Source of the DNA: Candidatus Aenigmatarchaeota archaeon
GTDB taxonomy: Archaea; Aenigmatarchaeota; Aenigmatarchaeia; GW2011-AR5
NCBI GenBank assembly: GCA_043799385.1
Contig: JAZDNV010000023.1
Span: 1 to 30,274 of the forward strand
Length of the DNA stretch: 30,274 bases
Direction: 5' to 3'
Shown piece after piece: positions 1 to 23,642 of the stretch. Position numbers and translations under genes: made by a program. The notes beneath the pieces were generated by a model. The model made no database searches, was not told the DNA's origin, and was given only the letters and a program-made list of their open reading frames with translations. Numbering within the stretch: position 1 is the stretch's first letter; each line of letters starts with the position of its first letter.

Positions 1-147
1 ACTTGCCATGAAAAAATTTAAAACACAGTTCTGACTTACGAGAGAAGCATAACAAATAGATGTACATACGAAATGCTGCGTCATCGGCATTTTTACTTGG
101 AAATCGATTAACTTATGCCTCTTAAACTCATCCTGCCATATATAGAT

Positions 148-309
148 ATGACGCTATACATCTGCGGGAAATGTGGAAAATTTTTTGCAACGAAAAAAAA
201 CCGAAAACCTAGAGAGGTCATAAAGGAAATCAGGCATGGGGCAAAAGGAAAGGTAGAAGTAGCATTTCCATTGTGCCTGAAGTGCCAGCCGAAGAAAAAA
301 CTCGCTTAA
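148..309 (+). CDS. Zinc-finger micro-protein (53 aa, CGKC...CLKC)
   Basis: From ATG at 148: MTLYICGKCGKFF...FPLCLKCQPKKKLA. Two CxxC pairs. Confidence 0.65.
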   Translation: MTLYICGKCGKFFATKKNRKPREVIKEIRHGAKGKVEVAFPLCLKCQPKKKLA

Positions 310-400
310 GATTTTACCATATGCAAAATATCATAATCAATTATTTGTTTAGTCTGACGATTGCCGTGACTTTAAGGAGTTATGGACACATATTATAGTT

Positions 401-604
401 ATGAACATAACAAAGAAGCTTTTGATGTCTTGGTTGGACGGTGACAATAACAAAGAAGCGTTAGCAAGAACCGACCTGAAGAATGTAATCACATGGATGA
501 AAGGAGAGACCAATCCAGAAACTGAAAAAGAAATAAGAAACGAGGGTTACGGATGGATATACGACCTTCGCAAGAAATGGAAAAAAGAAAATAAAAAACG
601 ATAA
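401..604 (+). CDS. Hypothetical protein (67 aa)
   Basis: Clean ORF with typical composition and an AT-rich upstream region; no recognisable family. Confidence 0.6.
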   Translation: MNITKKLLMSWLDGDNNKEALARTDLKNVITWMKGETNPETEKEIRNEGYGWIYDLRKKWKKENKKR

Positions 605-648
605 TTCATTTCTGTCCTAATTATGCATTTTATTCTGATTTAGCGATA

Positions 649-700
649 TTTCAAAGTTTGCACTAATTTTCAAGGTTTGTACCAAAAGTCATATTATAAA
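649..700 (+). promoter_or_regulatory. Tandem imperfect 18-bp direct repeat (candidate operator) followed by a TATA-like element
   Basis: TTTCAAAGTTTGCACTAA (649-666) and TTTCAAGGTTTGTACCAA (668-685), 15/18 identical. TATTATAAA at 692-700 precedes the micro-ORF run. Confidence 0.4.
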
Positions 701-727
701 CGTCGTGTAGTTGTTATCGGTGATTGT

Positions 728-841
728 ATGAACTGTATGGTATGCGGAGAAGAAACGAATTTTATGAAAAGCATCGGCGACGTTGGCGTGGCCTTCTGTA
801 ATAAACACTATCACGAGGTGGATTTCTATGACGACTTTTAG
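728..841 (+). CDS. Zinc-finger micro-protein (37 aa, CxxC...CxxH)
   Basis: MNCMVCGEETNFMKSIGDVGVAFCNKHYHEVDFYDDF*; SD-like GGTGAT just upstream. Confidence 0.65.
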   Translation: MNCMVCGEETNFMKSIGDVGVAFCNKHYHEVDFYDDF

Positions 842-947
842 GGTTAAATTGAGCACACAGCAACTCAGAAGGCTGAATGGTATGGTGAAGAGCGGAGTCT
901 ATGAATCAAGAGACGAGGCGATAGGCAATGCCATCAAATGCCTGTAA
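828..947 (+). CDS. Ribbon-helix-helix (CopG/Arc/MetJ-like) micro-protein (39 aa)
   Basis: MTTFRVKLSTQQLRRLNGMVKSGVYESRDEAIGNAIKCL* fits the RHH pattern VxL...LxxLVxxGxYxSRxEAIxxAI. SD GAGGTG upstream; overlaps the previous ORF by 14 nt. Confidence 0.7.
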   Translation: MTTFRVKLSTQQLRRLNGMVKSGVYESRDEAIGNAIKCL

Positions 948-966
948 AAAGTTGGATGGCGGCGAG

Positions 967-1089
967 ATGGAAATGCCCGTATGCTGCGGAAAAAGAATGA
1001 AAATCAACATGGAGCTCGGACGTTTCTTGGAAGTCCAATGCGGCATATGCGGGGACATAGACTATACAAAAAGGTATAGCAGATTTTGA
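967..1089 (+). CDS. Zinc-ribbon micro-protein (40 aa, CCG..M...CxxCG)
   Basis: MEMPVCCGKRMKINMELGRFLEVQCGICGDIDYTKRYSRF*. Confidence 0.65.
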   Translation: MEMPVCCGKRMKINMELGRFLEVQCGICGDIDYTKRYSRF

Positions 1090-1115
1090 TATAAATATAA
1101 AATTGGGGTGTTGGT

Positions 1116-1217
1116 ATGAAGAACGTGCATTACTGCGGAGACGGGTTCAAAGGCGAGGTAATAAAAGCCAAGGGCATAATCTTCTGCGGCTTTTGTGGGC
1201 ACGAGTTCAAAAGATAA
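1116..1217 (+). CDS. Zinc-finger micro-protein (33 aa, HxC...CxxCG), paralog of 13341-13442
   Basis: MKNVHYCGDGFKGEVIKAKGIIFCGFCGHEFKR*; SD-like GGGGTG upstream; 24/33 identical to a second copy in this window. Confidence 0.8.
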   Translation: MKNVHYCGDGFKGEVIKAKGIIFCGFCGHEFKR

Positions 1218-5889: not shown

Positions 5890-5896
5890 CAGCAGT

Positions 5897-5983
5897 AGCT
5901 TTGCATAAAAACAGGCTATCAGCCTGCAAATAGCGCTGATAGCCTACGGTCGATGGATGTGAGAATCACTTTTGTGCAAAGCT
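5897..5983. mobile_element. MITE-like structured repeat, copy 1
   Basis: Ends AGCTTTGCATAAAA / TTTTGTGCAAAGCT; flanks ACCAGCAGT / ACCAGCAGA (8/9); internal 11-bp hairpin AGGCTATCAGC/GCTGATAGCCT; ~80% identical to the reverse complement of 17134-17222. Confidence 0.7.
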
Positions 5984-6017
5984 ACCAGCAGAAGAAATAG
6001 TTAATCATCGGCAAAAT

Positions 6018-12311: not shown

Positions 12312-13298
12312 TTATCCCCTGATCACAGGATTGCCGAACATCAGATAAGCAAAGTTTCCGTAGCTCCACTCCAGTTTTGAATCACTGGGAGCCAGTCCAA
12401 TGTTGTTATTTTCCAGAGTTGGTGTGGCGCCTGCCACGTGTATCCCATCGCCAACGTTCACCATTGTGTTATTTTTTACAATGGCAGAGCCGCTCAATAT
12501 GACAATTCCAGTATGGACGTTATAAATCTTGTTATTTTCTATGACAGGGTTTCCTCCCTGGACATCTATGCCCTCATGGCCTGACTCCCATATCTCGTTG
12601 CCATAAATCTGCGAGGAAGAGAAACCTGAAGATATCGAGCCCCAGAATGTATAGTTTATTATATTGTTTTTGATGACTGTGTTCGGAGTATTGGGTCCCA
12701 AAGCGATGCCGTGTCTTGACCACTCGACTACACAGTACTCCATGATGCTTCTGTCAGCACCTACATGGATTCCAACCCAATCAGCGTAATTCGGTTTGGA
12801 AGCCTCAGAGGTAAAGATTATTCTTTTGTCTGGCGTTCCAATCGCCTTTAGTTTTCCATTGACGACCAAGTCAGAATGCGTTATCTCGTAGCTTTTCAGC
12901 CGCGTGGGGTCAAGGTCGTTATAGCCGTCTGGCGGAACCTCGTTGCCCCAGCCAACATCATCTCCAACGACAAACCTGACAACTGTTCCTGGTAGAATAG
13001 TCAGGTCACCATCGATGTGCGTGTCGCCTGTAATCAAGATTTCACCGCTCCATAGCTGATTTTCGTGGAACTTGCCAGATATAGAAGTGTTCTCAACGCG
13101 CTTTGCATTCTTCAACGCGTCGTCAATTGCTTCTTTCTCATCTAGCGTGGTATTGACGTCTGTTTGAGATTCTTCTGTCGGGAGTTCTTCTACATCTGTA
13201 TCATTTGTTGGCGCTTCTGATTTTTCGACACAACCACTGATAAAAATAATTATAAGAATCAAAATTAACAAAGGGGTTATAAAAAATAATTTTCTCAT
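12312..13298 (-). CDS. Putative lipoprotein with a right-handed beta-helix (NosD/pectin-lyase-like) domain
   Basis: Signal peptide ending in a lipobox (ISGC); LTILPGTVV, G.L.A.GT....I.FTS and repeated I.NN.I units. Confidence 0.8.
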   Translation of the reverse strand: MRKLFFITPLLILILIIIFISGCVEKSEAPTNDTDVEELPTEESQTDVNTTLDEKEAIDDALKNAKRVENTSISGKFHENQLWSGEILITGDTHIDGDLTILPGTVVRFVVGDDVGWGNEVPPDGYNDLDPTRLKSYEITHSDLVVNGKLKAIGTPDKRIIFTSEASKPNYADWVGIHVGADRSIMEYCVVEWSRHGIALGPNTPNTVIKNNIINYTFWGSISSGFSSSQIYGNEIWESGHEGIDVQGGNPVIENNKIYNVHTGIVILSGSAIVKNNTMVNVGDGIHVAGATPTLENNNIGLAPSDSKLEWSYGNFAYLMFGNPVIRG

Positions 13299-13340
13299 AA
13301 TAAATATTGATTTAAGATTATTTAATAATCTTTCCATAGG

Positions 13341-13442
13341 CTAGTTTCTAAATTCTTTTCCGCAGAAACCGCAGAAAACAATGCCATGAGCTTTGATTAT
13401 CTCGCCGCGAAAACCGTCACCGCAATAATGTTTCTTTTTCAT
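13341..13442 (-). CDS. Zinc-finger micro-protein (33 aa), paralog of 1116-1217
   Basis: MKKKHYCGDGFRGEIIKAHGIVFCGFCGKEFRN*; SD GAGGTG; same length as and 24/33 identical to the paralog. Confidence 0.8.
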   Translation of the reverse strand: MKKKHYCGDGFRGEIIKAHGIVFCGFCGKEFRN

Positions 13443-13475
13443 TTTCAAACACCTCAAACTTCACCCGTCATCTGC

Positions 13476-13521
13476 AAAAAAAGAAAAAGGCAATGGCCGG
13501 GTCCCGACTGGGACCCGCTCG
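13476..13521 (-). terminator. GC-rich hairpin followed by a U-tract (terminator-like)
   Basis: Minus strand CGGGUCCC-AGUC-GGGACCCG (8-bp perfect stem), then UUUUUCUUUUUUU about 10 nt later. Confidence 0.5.
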
Positions 13522-13670
13522 GCAAAACACGATGCGCCATCGAAACTATACTGATGGTTCTTCTTTTTTCTTTCTTGACATAGGACGACCACCTTCACCT
13601 TCATTCGAGCCGGGCCGAAAGGGGCTTGCGCGGATCAGGTCTTGGAGCATATCGCCATCCGCTTGGGCTC
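13495..13670 (-). ncRNA. Candidate structured RNA / cis-regulatory leader
   Basis: GC-rich intergenic island with stems GAGCC/GGCUC, GCGGAU/AUCCGC, CCAUC/GAUGG and the terminal hairpin. The strand is inferred from the U-tract and the downstream gene. Confidence 0.45.
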
Positions 13671-13773
13671 TATACATCAATTGTTTTCTTCCCATTATCT
13701 GATTTTCCCAAGAGCGCATGAAAAGTGAACAGTGACATGGAATTTATATTAATATTGCCTACAATCTATCTCT

Positions 13774-14802
13774 ATGAAGATGCTGCTTTCTGACGAGACG
13801 CTGTTCAAGGATGAAAACGTTTTTGATTTCAGCTACCTTCCTGAGCAGTTCACGCATCGAGACGCGCAACTTAAGTCGCTGGCGATGTGCATAAAGCCGG
13901 CAATGCGCGGAGCTAAGCCGCTGAACGCATTATTATACGGACCGCCAGCGACCGGCAAGACGACTGCAATCAAGACAGTTTTTCAGCAGCTGGAGGAAGA
14001 AACGGACAGAGCGGTCGCCGTACACGTGAATTGCCAGATTTATTCCTCGCCGTTCCGCGTGTTTTCGGAAATTCATAAAAAGATGTTCGGCTATCTGCCG
14101 CCGGAGACGGGTGTGCCTTTTTCGAACGTTTATGACAAAATTTTTCAGAAGTTGTCGAAAGAGGGCAAGACGCTTATCGTTGCATTGGATGATCTCAGCG
14201 GAGGCGATGAGATTCTCTATAATATTATCAGAGCGCATGAAGCATTCCCGAAAGCAAAGGCAGCAGTTTTTGCCGTGATGCCTGAGAATGCTATGCATAA
14301 ATTAGACGGACGCGTGCGATCGGTCTTTCAGCCGCAGCAGATAAGCTTTCCGCTATACAATGCGGGCGAGATATTCGACATACTAAAAGGCAGAGCAGAA
14401 ATCGGCTTTTATCCAAACGTTATTTCTGATGACATTATAAGAAAGATAGCAACGATTGCTTTTAGGAAGAATGATTCACGATTTGGAATCGAATTGTTAA
14501 AGCAATCGGCTATGACTGCAGAAAAGAACTCATCAAGAAAGATTGGAATCATTGATGTGGATAATGCGCTAAAAGCAATGATGCCATTGAGAGCAGAACG
14601 CAGCAATGATGAAGAAGCAATATTGAATTCACTGGCAAAGGGACCGATGAAATCCGGAGAACTTTATGATTCGTTGAAAAATAAGATGAGCTATTCAGGA
14701 TTGTACAGAACGCTGAAGAAATTAAAGGAAGCGAATCTTATTGAGATAAAGGAAACGAACCTGAAAAAAGGAAAAACGAGAATAATATCAAAGAGGAAAT
14801 GA
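13774..14802 (+). CDS. cdc6: Orc1/Cdc6-family AAA+ ATPase
   Basis: F.....YLPE....R, Walker A GPPATGKT, VNC, Walker B IVALDD, FPLY...EIFDIL..R, C-terminal wHTH. Confidence 0.88.
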   Translation: MKMLLSDETLFKDENVFDFSYLPEQFTHRDAQLKSLAMCIKPAMRGAKPLNALLYGPPATGKTTAIKTVFQQLEEETDRAVAVHVNCQIYSSPFRVFSEIHKKMFGYLPPETGVPFSNVYDKIFQKLSKEGKTLIVALDDLSGGDEILYNIIRAHEAFPKAKAAVFAVMPENAMHKLDGRVRSVFQPQQISFPLYNAGEIFDILKGRAEIGFYPNVISDDIIRKIATIAFRKNDSRFGIELLKQSAMTAEKNSSRKIGIIDVDNALKAMMPLRAERSNDEEAILNSLAKGPMKSGELYDSLKNKMSYSGLYRTLKKLKEANLIEIKETNLKKGKTRIISKRK

Positions 14803-17133: not shown

Positions 17134-17222
17134 GGCTTTGTTTAAAAAGTGGTTCTCGCAACCATCGATGGAAGGCTATCAGCGCTAATCGCAGGCCGAT
17201 AGCCTGGTTTTTAAACAAAGCA
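17134..17222. mobile_element. MITE-like structured repeat, copy 2 (inverted relative to copy 1)
   Basis: Perfect 14-bp inverted ends GCTTTGTTTAAAAA/TTTTTAAACAAAGC; 71/89 identical to copy 1 by manual alignment. Confidence 0.7.
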
Positions 17223-23397: not shown

Positions 23398-23505
23398 GAG
23401 TGAGATTGCTTAAGAAATTATTAAACCATTTATTGTCATGAGCGGTTACTTCCAGGGAAGGTTGTTCTGACTGTAAGTGCAATAGTAATTTGTTTTACTC
23501 TAAGC

Positions 23506-23597
23506 AGCTTTGTTGAAAAAGAAACCTATTGTCTGCCAACAATAGGTTATCCGTTGGTGGACACCAGTCATATGTCCACAACTTTTTCAACAAAGCC
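23506..23597. mobile_element. MITE-like structured repeat, copy 3 (same end type, different interior)
   Basis: Perfect 15-bp inverted ends GCTTTGTTGAAAAAG/CTTTTTCAACAAAGC; flanks ACTCTAAGC/ATTCTAAGA (7/9); internal hairpins AACCTATTGT/ACAATAGGTT and GTGGACA/TGTCCAC. Confidence 0.65.
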
Positions 23598-23642
23598 ATT
23601 CTAAGAGTAAGCTTTATTTACCGATTAATCCATGTTTTTAAT

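Follow-up and report, generated by a model that had tools for sequence, protein, structure and literature searches.

What is the nature of the hairpin-rich stretch that precedes the gene for a 33-aa Cys/His microprotein in Candidatus Aenigmatarchaeota archaeon? The window, i.e. the whole stretch of DNA that was analyzed, is contig C23 of its genome (GenBank JAZDNV010000023.1; 30,274 nt). This genome (assembly GCA_043799385.1, here G000) comprises 786 kb on 31 contigs and is 91% complete; G and L numbers designate relatives' genomes and loci. The microprotein gene (13341..13442, minus strand, assigned from its open reading frame (ORF) translation) is separated by an intergenic spacer of 331 bp (13443-13773) from the divergently oriented orc1/cdc6 gene (13774..14802, plus strand; Pfam Cdc6_lid, 1.8e-15, and AAA_16, 1.5e-11). 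In the original prediction, most of this spacer was described as a riboswitch- or attenuator-like leader and was interpreted as a new archaeal RNA switch or else as an independent small RNA. The observation is confirmed in part and the interpretation is supported in part: a leader, an attenuator or a small RNA is possible, while a riboswitch is unsupported. We tentatively favor, with somewhat less than even confidence, that 13443 to about 13672 is a species-specific, non-coding 5' leader, and that its U-tract is a leaky, constitutive archaeal terminator. The element would then be an orphan without relatives, of an already known kind.

In the 3' part of the leader, a T5CT7 tract (13488-13476, minus strand) is a likely archaeal termination signal and at the same time forms the 3' arm of an outer stem. 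It has runs of at least five U on the transcribed strand, which is how U-tract terminators were recognized, and is among the approximately 1% strongest tracts near genes. T5-N-T5 or better is found in 1.0% of the 120-nt upstream regions and in 1.3% of the 80-nt downstream regions of the 692 long ORFs of the genome and, with both strands considered, in 6 of 105 divergent spacers. First T runs cluster at most 20 nt past stop codons in this genome. An ortholog of aCPSF1 is encoded (C13:12045-13898; TIGR03675, 852.7 bits with a cut-off of 580.2). As described in PMC10450193, archaeal termination needs poly-U and aCPSF1, reaches only 30-80% at most sites, and at sites inside operons sets the differential expression of downstream genes. 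Because oligo-U and aCPSF1 end archaeal transcription, usually in part, the module is taken as a leaky constitutive terminator. Minus-strand transcription would proceed from a conserved box (13735-13702) that is followed, after 8 nt, by a TATA-like hexamer. Many transcripts would stop near 13476-13482, independent of any ligand, which would release a non-coding RNA with a length of approximately 190 nt (approximately 240 nt with the upstream TATA). A minority would read through into an mRNA that carries the Shine-Dalgarno sequence and the 33-aa gene. Such a leaky terminator would keep expression of the microprotein gene below promoter strength.

The conserved promoter box (13702..13735, minus strand) has a core, CTTTTCA-N3-GCTCTTGG, at 13725-13708, with a second, TTCA-type half repeat before it. 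It is the only conserved DNA in the spacer and the only part of it with BLAST matches in relatives. When 13340-13775 was compared with 40 relatives by BLASTN, the matches were confined to the microprotein ORF (from the Shine-Dalgarno sequence on) and the 30-nt box 13702-13735. The core is unique in G000. It has 28 matches in 18 of the 44 genomes of the family (9 for a reversed control); of the matches with one mismatch, several fall within ORFs and are likely to be spurious. The module was aligned in 17 loci including the window, and a TATA-like hexamer follows the core after 8-10 nt in most of them. The consensus is (ACTTTTCA)x2-N3-GCTCTTGG-N8-TATA; besides the window, it is found in L003, L175, L180-L182, L193, L194, L197-L199, L079, L084 and L086-L089, with 0-4 copies per genome. 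In genus g19, the module is located within 23S rRNA genes (identified by a large-subunit rRNA search), where it precedes ORFs; four of the five that were scanned are assigned to LAGLIDADG_3 by Pfam. The ATG of four box-led ORFs, three of them LAGLIDADG according to Pfam, is located 34-36 nt after CTCTTGG, and that of a fifth, LAGLIDADG-type ORF (L199) 34 nt after it, as counted by eye. This fixed distance implies leaderless mRNAs, so that the module behaves as a promoter. At other loci, it is found before zinc-ribbon ORFs that lie upstream of cdc6, before the microprotein operons of G001 and G010, and before other genes. Literature searches, judged by titles and the openings of abstracts, gave no paper on this box or on the leader.

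When the 34-36-nt offset is transferred to the window (about 13674-13672), transcription is predicted to start within 13668..13675 on the minus strand, probably near 13672, which is at the GAGCC that opens the first domain of the leader. The TATA-like GATAAT (13694..13699, minus strand) is located 8 nt after the box, at a position where other loci have TATATC, TTATAC or TTTATA. An AT-rich TATA region (13740..13755, both strands, read from the sequence) is stronger than GATAAT. It contains the plus-strand element TTTATATT (13741-13748), approximately 26 nt before the cdc6 ATG, and this spacing suggests that the cdc6 mRNA is probably leaderless. On the minus strand, 13755-13740 could be an alternative promoter with a start near 13720. 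A third candidate is the weak GTATAGTTT (13552-13544, minus strand). There is no sign of a separate promoter right before 13442: no TATA-like hexamer was seen when the minus strand was read from 13540 to 13443. Thus, for all three candidate promoters (13751, 13699 and 13552), the hairpin and the T-tract lie between the start and the gene.

The individual features named in the original prediction (stems, ORF, hairpins, T-tract, Shine-Dalgarno sequence and alternative pairing) are all present on the minus strand, exactly at the positions given there. The 5' domain (13604..13672; pairings read from the sequence) consists of a P1 stem, GAGCC (13670-13666) with GGCUC (13611-13607), and an inner stem, GCGGAU (13662-13657) with AUCCGC (13635-13630). 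The ORF list contains a 47-aa frame from 13604 to 13461. The 3' module (13590-13462) has three or four hairpins, which are enclosed by an outer stem of a purine tract and a pyrimidine tract. The 5' arm of this stem (13565..13587, …GUCAAGAAAGAAAAA) is purine-rich and belongs to inverted repeat I1, which has 23-nt arms and is 78% complementary to 13466-13488; the outer stem is present in the minimum free energy (MFE) fold. Inside it, CCAUC (13557-13553) and GAUGG (13541-13537) form a weak hairpin (13537..13557, -4.9 kcal/mol) with an 11-nt loop. The last hairpin, followed by T5CT7, is the 8-bp G+C hairpin CGGGUCCC-AGUC-GGGACCCG (13517-13498, -17.5 kcal/mol). The Shine-Dalgarno sequence GAGGTG (13455-13450) is located 7 nt before the ATG at 13442 and is kept in G001 and G010. 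In the alternative (antiterminator) pairing, 13616-13606 is joined to 13521-13512 by 10 bp with one bulge (-15.4 kcal/mol).

Not all of these pairings exceed what is expected by chance. The 5' domain (13672-13604) has an MFE of -19.9, compared to -19.2 +/- 2.8 for shuffled sequences (z -0.24), so that the predicted aptamer folds like shuffled sequence. The whole leader (13670-13443) is also at chance level (z about -0.4; -0.47 and -0.36 in two runs against shuffles). The 3' module is above chance on the minus strand (z -3.4), and z is still -2.6 when the A/U tracts are held fixed. No special structure was detected in the 5' third of the leader, and its 3' half forms a stable palindromic module.

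With respect to known RNA families, Rfam 15 had no match in the window at gathering score, and the 4227 Rfam models, applied to 13250-13900 at E up to 10, gave only five chance-level matches to unrelated families; thiamine pyrophosphate (TPP) and fluoride riboswitches were unmatched. There is no tRNA in the window. The RNA of the signal recognition particle was considered and rejected as an identity, as that of G000 is encoded elsewhere (C28:3513-3782). Relatives of the leader were sought in the phylum (371 genomes), the order (70 genomes) and 100 relatives' loci. The latter include 80 metagenome cdc6 loci, which were fetched with a 10-sequence Cdc6 alignment (a metagenome scan with the Cdc6 of G000 alone found no loci). 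The leader is single-copy, with no second copy in G000. No relative is present in the syntenic loci or the 80 metagenome cdc6 loci. Two covariance models, R1 for the 5' domain and R2 for the 3' module, were built from the single sequence of the window, entered twice, and are thus of limited reach; in the 100 relatives' loci, R2 had 0 matches and R1 had one at chance level (E 0.38). Since the leader has no relative, there is no covariation: no covarying base pairs could be found, as there were no relatives to align, and the close range is uncovered because the closest Cdc6 is 55% identical and there is no same-genus genome. Cdc6 orthologs from 9 genomes of the family share 43-55% identity, and the best Cdc6 from the 80 metagenome loci is also 55% identical, which means that the collections searched contain no close relative.

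Several observations weigh against the favored interpretation as a leader with a leaky terminator. The search of the 371 phylum genomes gave no relatives of the leader, only low-complexity matches of 18-28 nt, and R1 and R2 detected only G000 itself among the 70 genomes of the order. In G018, a positional analog exists (L194, G018:C23 1552-1831), where cdc6 and the same box are followed by a 280-nt structured non-coding stretch (z -2.6). This analog is an orphan as well, and not even its own genus contains a relative. As a TATA element, GATAAT is weak; most of the other loci have a stronger one, and G001 lacks one at that position. When T7 is accepted besides T5-N-T5, 19 of 105 divergent spacers contain such a tract (either strand counted), so that the tract alone is not rare there. 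Folding of the 3' module is at least equally good on the plus strand (z -4.4), and thus the module may be a DNA-level palindrome rather than an RNA element. Finally, sequencing run X1 (groundwater, related strain) has a low-depth contig which, over 13582-13733 (152 nt), differs from the window by 12 bases and one gap. This near-neutral divergence suggests little constraint on the 5' part of the leader. The cdc6 contig of the same run has 15 differences in 366 positions, and all 10 that are listed affect third codon positions (hand count; window 13761-14570), which indicates strong purifying selection on this short Cdc6 paralog.

The same observations are the basis of an alternative that is doubtful but must be taken seriously, namely that the stretch is fast-evolving spacer DNA without an RNA function. 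The 3' module would be a DNA feature, e.g. the remnant of a fold-back mobile insertion, and the microprotein gene would be transcribed across it or from an unrecognized promoter. This fits the orphan state of the leader in both sequence and structure, the near-neutral strain divergence of its 5' part and the better fold of the plus strand. It also fits that the leaders of G000 and G018, both orphans, are not alignable: homology between them was considered and rejected, as their local score was reached by 55 of 500 shuffles. Also in line with this alternative are GGTGAAG, which is repeated on either side of the module, and approximately 29 copies in G000 of a miniature inverted-repeat transposable element (MITE) of 90-100 bp that is built alike, with an outer A5/T5 stem enclosing two hairpins. 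Like the MITE family, the spacer module is an intergenic fold-back with an outer inverted repeat ending in A5/T5 and with internal hairpins. However, it is single-copy, has a length of 122-129 nt rather than 90-100, encloses three or four different hairpins, and lacks a target-site duplication right at the repeat ends, as judged by reading the sequence. Membership in this MITE family was ruled out with the MITE profile and filters off (nhmmer --max, E up to 10), which found 0 matches in 13440-13700 and approximately 29 copies elsewhere. The composition is also unusual for junk: in a genome with 43% G+C, where spacers average 35%, this spacer holds the most G+C-rich 150-nt window (0.56) among 139 non-ORF segments (mean 0.35).

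The MITE itself is represented in the window at 5896-5984, 17134-17221 and 23505-23598, with approximately 26 further copies elsewhere in G000. Its ends are GCTTTG…AAAAA and TTTTT…CAAAGC, and target-site duplications are visible at several copies. Each copy resembles a bidirectional hairpin-plus-T-tract terminator. Among the next 13 G+C-rich non-ORF segments of G000, 4 hold tRNA genes, and 9 have no long ORF, no tRNA and no Rfam match (E 0.01). These include C2:1614-1828, C26:14786-15092, C14:19980-20508, C7:672-953, C10:35772-36035 and C2:3953-4461, among others. Such G+C-rich orphan segments may be small genes or unknown RNAs.

An independent small RNA, the second option of the original prediction, is unlikely. 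The stretch would then encode a trans-acting RNA of approximately 190-240 nt with its own box promoter and U-tract terminator, and the microprotein gene would be a separate unit. The arrangement is suggestive, as the G+C-rich, non-coding stretch is bounded by a promoter module on one side and by a strong T-tract on the other. In G018, where the box likewise precedes a structured stretch, the next gene has its own strong TATA region. In the window, however, no promoter-like sequence was seen between the T-tract and the Shine-Dalgarno sequence, which are 20 nt apart, and in G001 and G010 it is the microprotein gene that is transcribed from the promoter module. The lack of conservation and the 5' two thirds, which have no structure above chance, are also against a small RNA. 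The wider description as an attenuator-like leader or separate small RNA is still reasonable, since the stretch is non-coding as far as testable, is located between a conserved promoter module and a Shine-Dalgarno sequence, and contains a strong hairpin with a U-tract that transcription towards the gene has to pass; the riboswitch is unsupported. A C/D-box small RNA was also considered, based on UGAUGU (13679-13674) and CUGA (13638-13635), which were judged by eye only. This was dropped because the C box lacks the final GA and is located at or before the predicted start.

A regulated attenuator is rather unlikely. In this case, transcription would stop at T5CT7 unless the stop is suppressed by translation of the 47-codon frame or by a trans factor, possibly the microprotein itself. 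If true, bacterial attenuation mediated by leader peptides or proteins would have a lineage-specific counterpart in archaea, with the RNA of approximately 190 nt as a by-product. In a DPANN archaeon, it would be of real interest, yet nothing here indicates regulation.

It is quite unlikely that the leader encodes a small protein. Candidates are a 43-aa frame from the ATG at 13677, which would be nearly leaderless, a 34-aa frame from 13650, and the 47-aa frame (13604-13461). The latter extends across the hairpins and the T-tract, with its stop 18 nt upstream of the microprotein start codon; its translation could couple to microprotein expression or shield the transcript from termination. From CTCTTGG to the ATG at 13677 the distance is 31 nt, which is similar to that in the leaderless ORFs (34-36 nt). 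A comparison can also be made with G001 (G001:C55, L003) and G010 (G010:C4, L047/L077), which have the same operon. There, the space between box and microprotein gene holds a real, conserved ORF of 36-41 aa with the motif WF[LI]NRPS. The two ORFs, which are from two genera, match each other (tblastn, E 1e-4). The complete micro-ORF operon consists of the box promoter, the 36-41-aa ORF, the zinc microprotein and a third small ORF that starts with MW[FI]GT[SN]F. The window is alike in its promoter module, downstream gene and operon position but has no homolog of the upstream micro-ORF, and an unrelated G+C-rich non-coding stretch takes its place. With tblastn, the G001 and G010 peptides have no match in the spacer, and their best G000 hits (E-values 0.6-2) fall elsewhere. 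A remnant of the WF[LI]NRPS ORF in the spacer was rejected for this reason and because a resemblance seen by eye is inconsistent in register.

The frames of the window itself also argue against a coding function. The minus-strand ORFs of 57 aa and 47 aa have no relatives in the 70 genomes of the order, and a word-index protein search with the 47-aa ORF and a 69-aa plus-strand ORF gave no match. When the 57-aa ORF was compared with 1.84 billion representatives, two matches were obtained, both to tandem-repeat proteins, with a score that is inflated by a short repeat. The leader ORFs have no Pfam and no NCBIfam family, and no Shine-Dalgarno sequence precedes the ATG at 13604. Codon scores per codon are 0.02, 0.01 and -0.03, all below the 5th percentile (0.027) of real coding windows (0.21 +/- 0.12), although this is a weak test at 43-57 codons; the values for the frames proposed here are 0.02 and -0.03. 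Two microprotein genes scored 0.19 and 0.32. The leader stretch is therefore regarded as non-coding, albeit with slight reservation.

That the spacer is part of a replication origin is improbable. In that case, Orc1/Cdc6 would recognize the box, and the palindromic module with its A/T tracts would serve in unwinding or have a structural role. The spacer directly adjoins cdc6, and the box is also found 40-900 nt upstream of cdc6 orthologs in G010, G005, G059 and G018, with three copies in both orientations in G059, as well as in the metagenome loci L079, L080 and L084-L089. The window has only a single box, however, and the spacer is G+C-rich rather than A+T-rich. The cumulative GC skew over the 30-kb window has no turning point here. 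That box and TATA precede LAGLIDADG ORFs in 23S rRNA genes at a fixed leaderless distance is promoter-like and also argues against an origin element.

The central claim of the original prediction, an RNA switch responsive to a ligand or factor, is highly improbable. An aptamer at 13670-13607 would choose between the antiterminator (13616-13606 with 13521-13512) and the terminator hairpin. All pairings exist, the T-tract is strong, and 13616-13606 indeed forms the best duplex between the upstream region and the 5' arm of the hairpin (-18.0). This value, however, was equaled or beaten in 301 of 1000 dinucleotide shuffles, and enforcing the alternative pairing costs 15 kcal/mol (-45.5 instead of -60.5), so that the mutually exclusive pairing is at chance level. 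Archaeal termination is independent of a hairpin, which further weakens the case. Riboswitches are defined by conserved aptamers, and the proposed aptamer domain is at chance level. Neither homologs nor covariation were found in the 371 phylum genomes, G000 itself, the syntenic loci or with the structure-aware models, and no known RNA family matched (gathering score or E up to 10); a lack of homologs or covariation had been named in the original prediction as refuting it. In the orthologous operons, an ORF and not an RNA domain occupies this position.

A highly reduced RNase P RNA, which came into question because none was detected in G000 while relatives keep it beside a microprotein gene (RF00373 is found in 20 of 25 relatives, in 7 of them 0.2-1.9 kb downstream of a same-strand microprotein gene, with some short forms of only 226-247 nt), is hardly conceivable and was ruled out, as no RNase P family matches 13250-13900 (E up to 10), the CR-I/CR-V motifs (P4 strands) conserved in relatives (GAGGAAGCTCTGTCCAC and ACAGAAGACGGGCTA) are absent from the spacer (G000-wide motif matches: 13, reversed control: 11), and the stretch is upstream of the gene, not downstream. 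In G000 as a whole, 43 RF00373 candidates were obtained, none at E 0.001 or better, and the lineage CR-I motif is absent too. The RNase P RNA of G000 may be encoded in the missing 9% of the genome or may have been lost.

The 33-aa microprotein belongs to a multi-copy family with the consensus HxCGxGF+GxxxKAxGxxFCGFCGKEF, while distant forms have CxxC…CxxC. It has no Pfam family above cut-off and no NCBIfam family. A tblastn search identified 19 other loci with 42-81% identity, and the window has copies at 13341-13442 and 1116-1217. The second copy is at the end of a small-ORF cluster (115-1217, plus strand), several members of which have CxxC pairs (115-309, 677-841 and 928-1089); the counterpart of ORF 928-1089 is directly upstream of the microprotein gene of G008 (L002). 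Twelve family genomes have an RNase P RNA hit, and in 7 of these a microprotein copy is located 0.2-1.9 kb upstream of it on the same strand (loci of the family include L004, L008, L010, L014, L031, L032 and L034). In several genomes (G009, G023, G004 and G018), a copy is found just past the 3' end of 23S rRNA. This linkage to RNA genes suggests a role in RNA metabolism. In L004, L032, L008 and L011, the RNase P-linked microprotein genes have leaders of 150-200 nt. The motif GGGGTGTGG-N-TTTCTG, present at the start codon, occurs a second time far upstream in these leaders. Those of G014 and G003 have two hairpins at matching positions with different sequences. Thus, these leaders may have a conserved structure.

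If the favored interpretation is correct, the microprotein gene is one more archaeal gene whose expression is set by a leaky U-tract terminator in its leader. As this type of control is already known, the case is an ordinary one. The analysis removes a false riboswitch lead and illustrates that G+C-rich, hairpin-rich leaders of DPANN archaea can by chance resemble the expression platforms of riboswitches. It defines a conserved promoter module, which fixes the probable transcript start, and links a microprotein family to RNA genes in relatives. On paper, the leader resembles bacterial terminating riboswitches and leader attenuators: the upstream domain offers an alternative partner for the 5' arm of the hairpin, after which come the U-tract, the Shine-Dalgarno sequence and the gene. 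It differs from them in having no conserved aptamer, covariation or Rfam match, an alternative pairing that is at chance level, and an archaeal host. According to PMC5473149, the riboswitches known in archaea are essentially only those of the TPP and fluoride classes; these have only the setting in a 5' leader in common with the window, and neither family matches 13250-13900. The closest parallel is found in Methanococcus maripaludis, where the poly-U- and aCPSF1-dependent "ioTTS" are located between operon genes (PMC10450193). The tract in the window is placed in a 5' leader instead, follows an 8-bp G+C hairpin and is paired with an upstream purine tract. It shares with the "ioTTS" a U-tract between promoter and downstream gene, the expectation of partial termination and thus of lower expression of that gene, and a genome that encodes aCPSF1.

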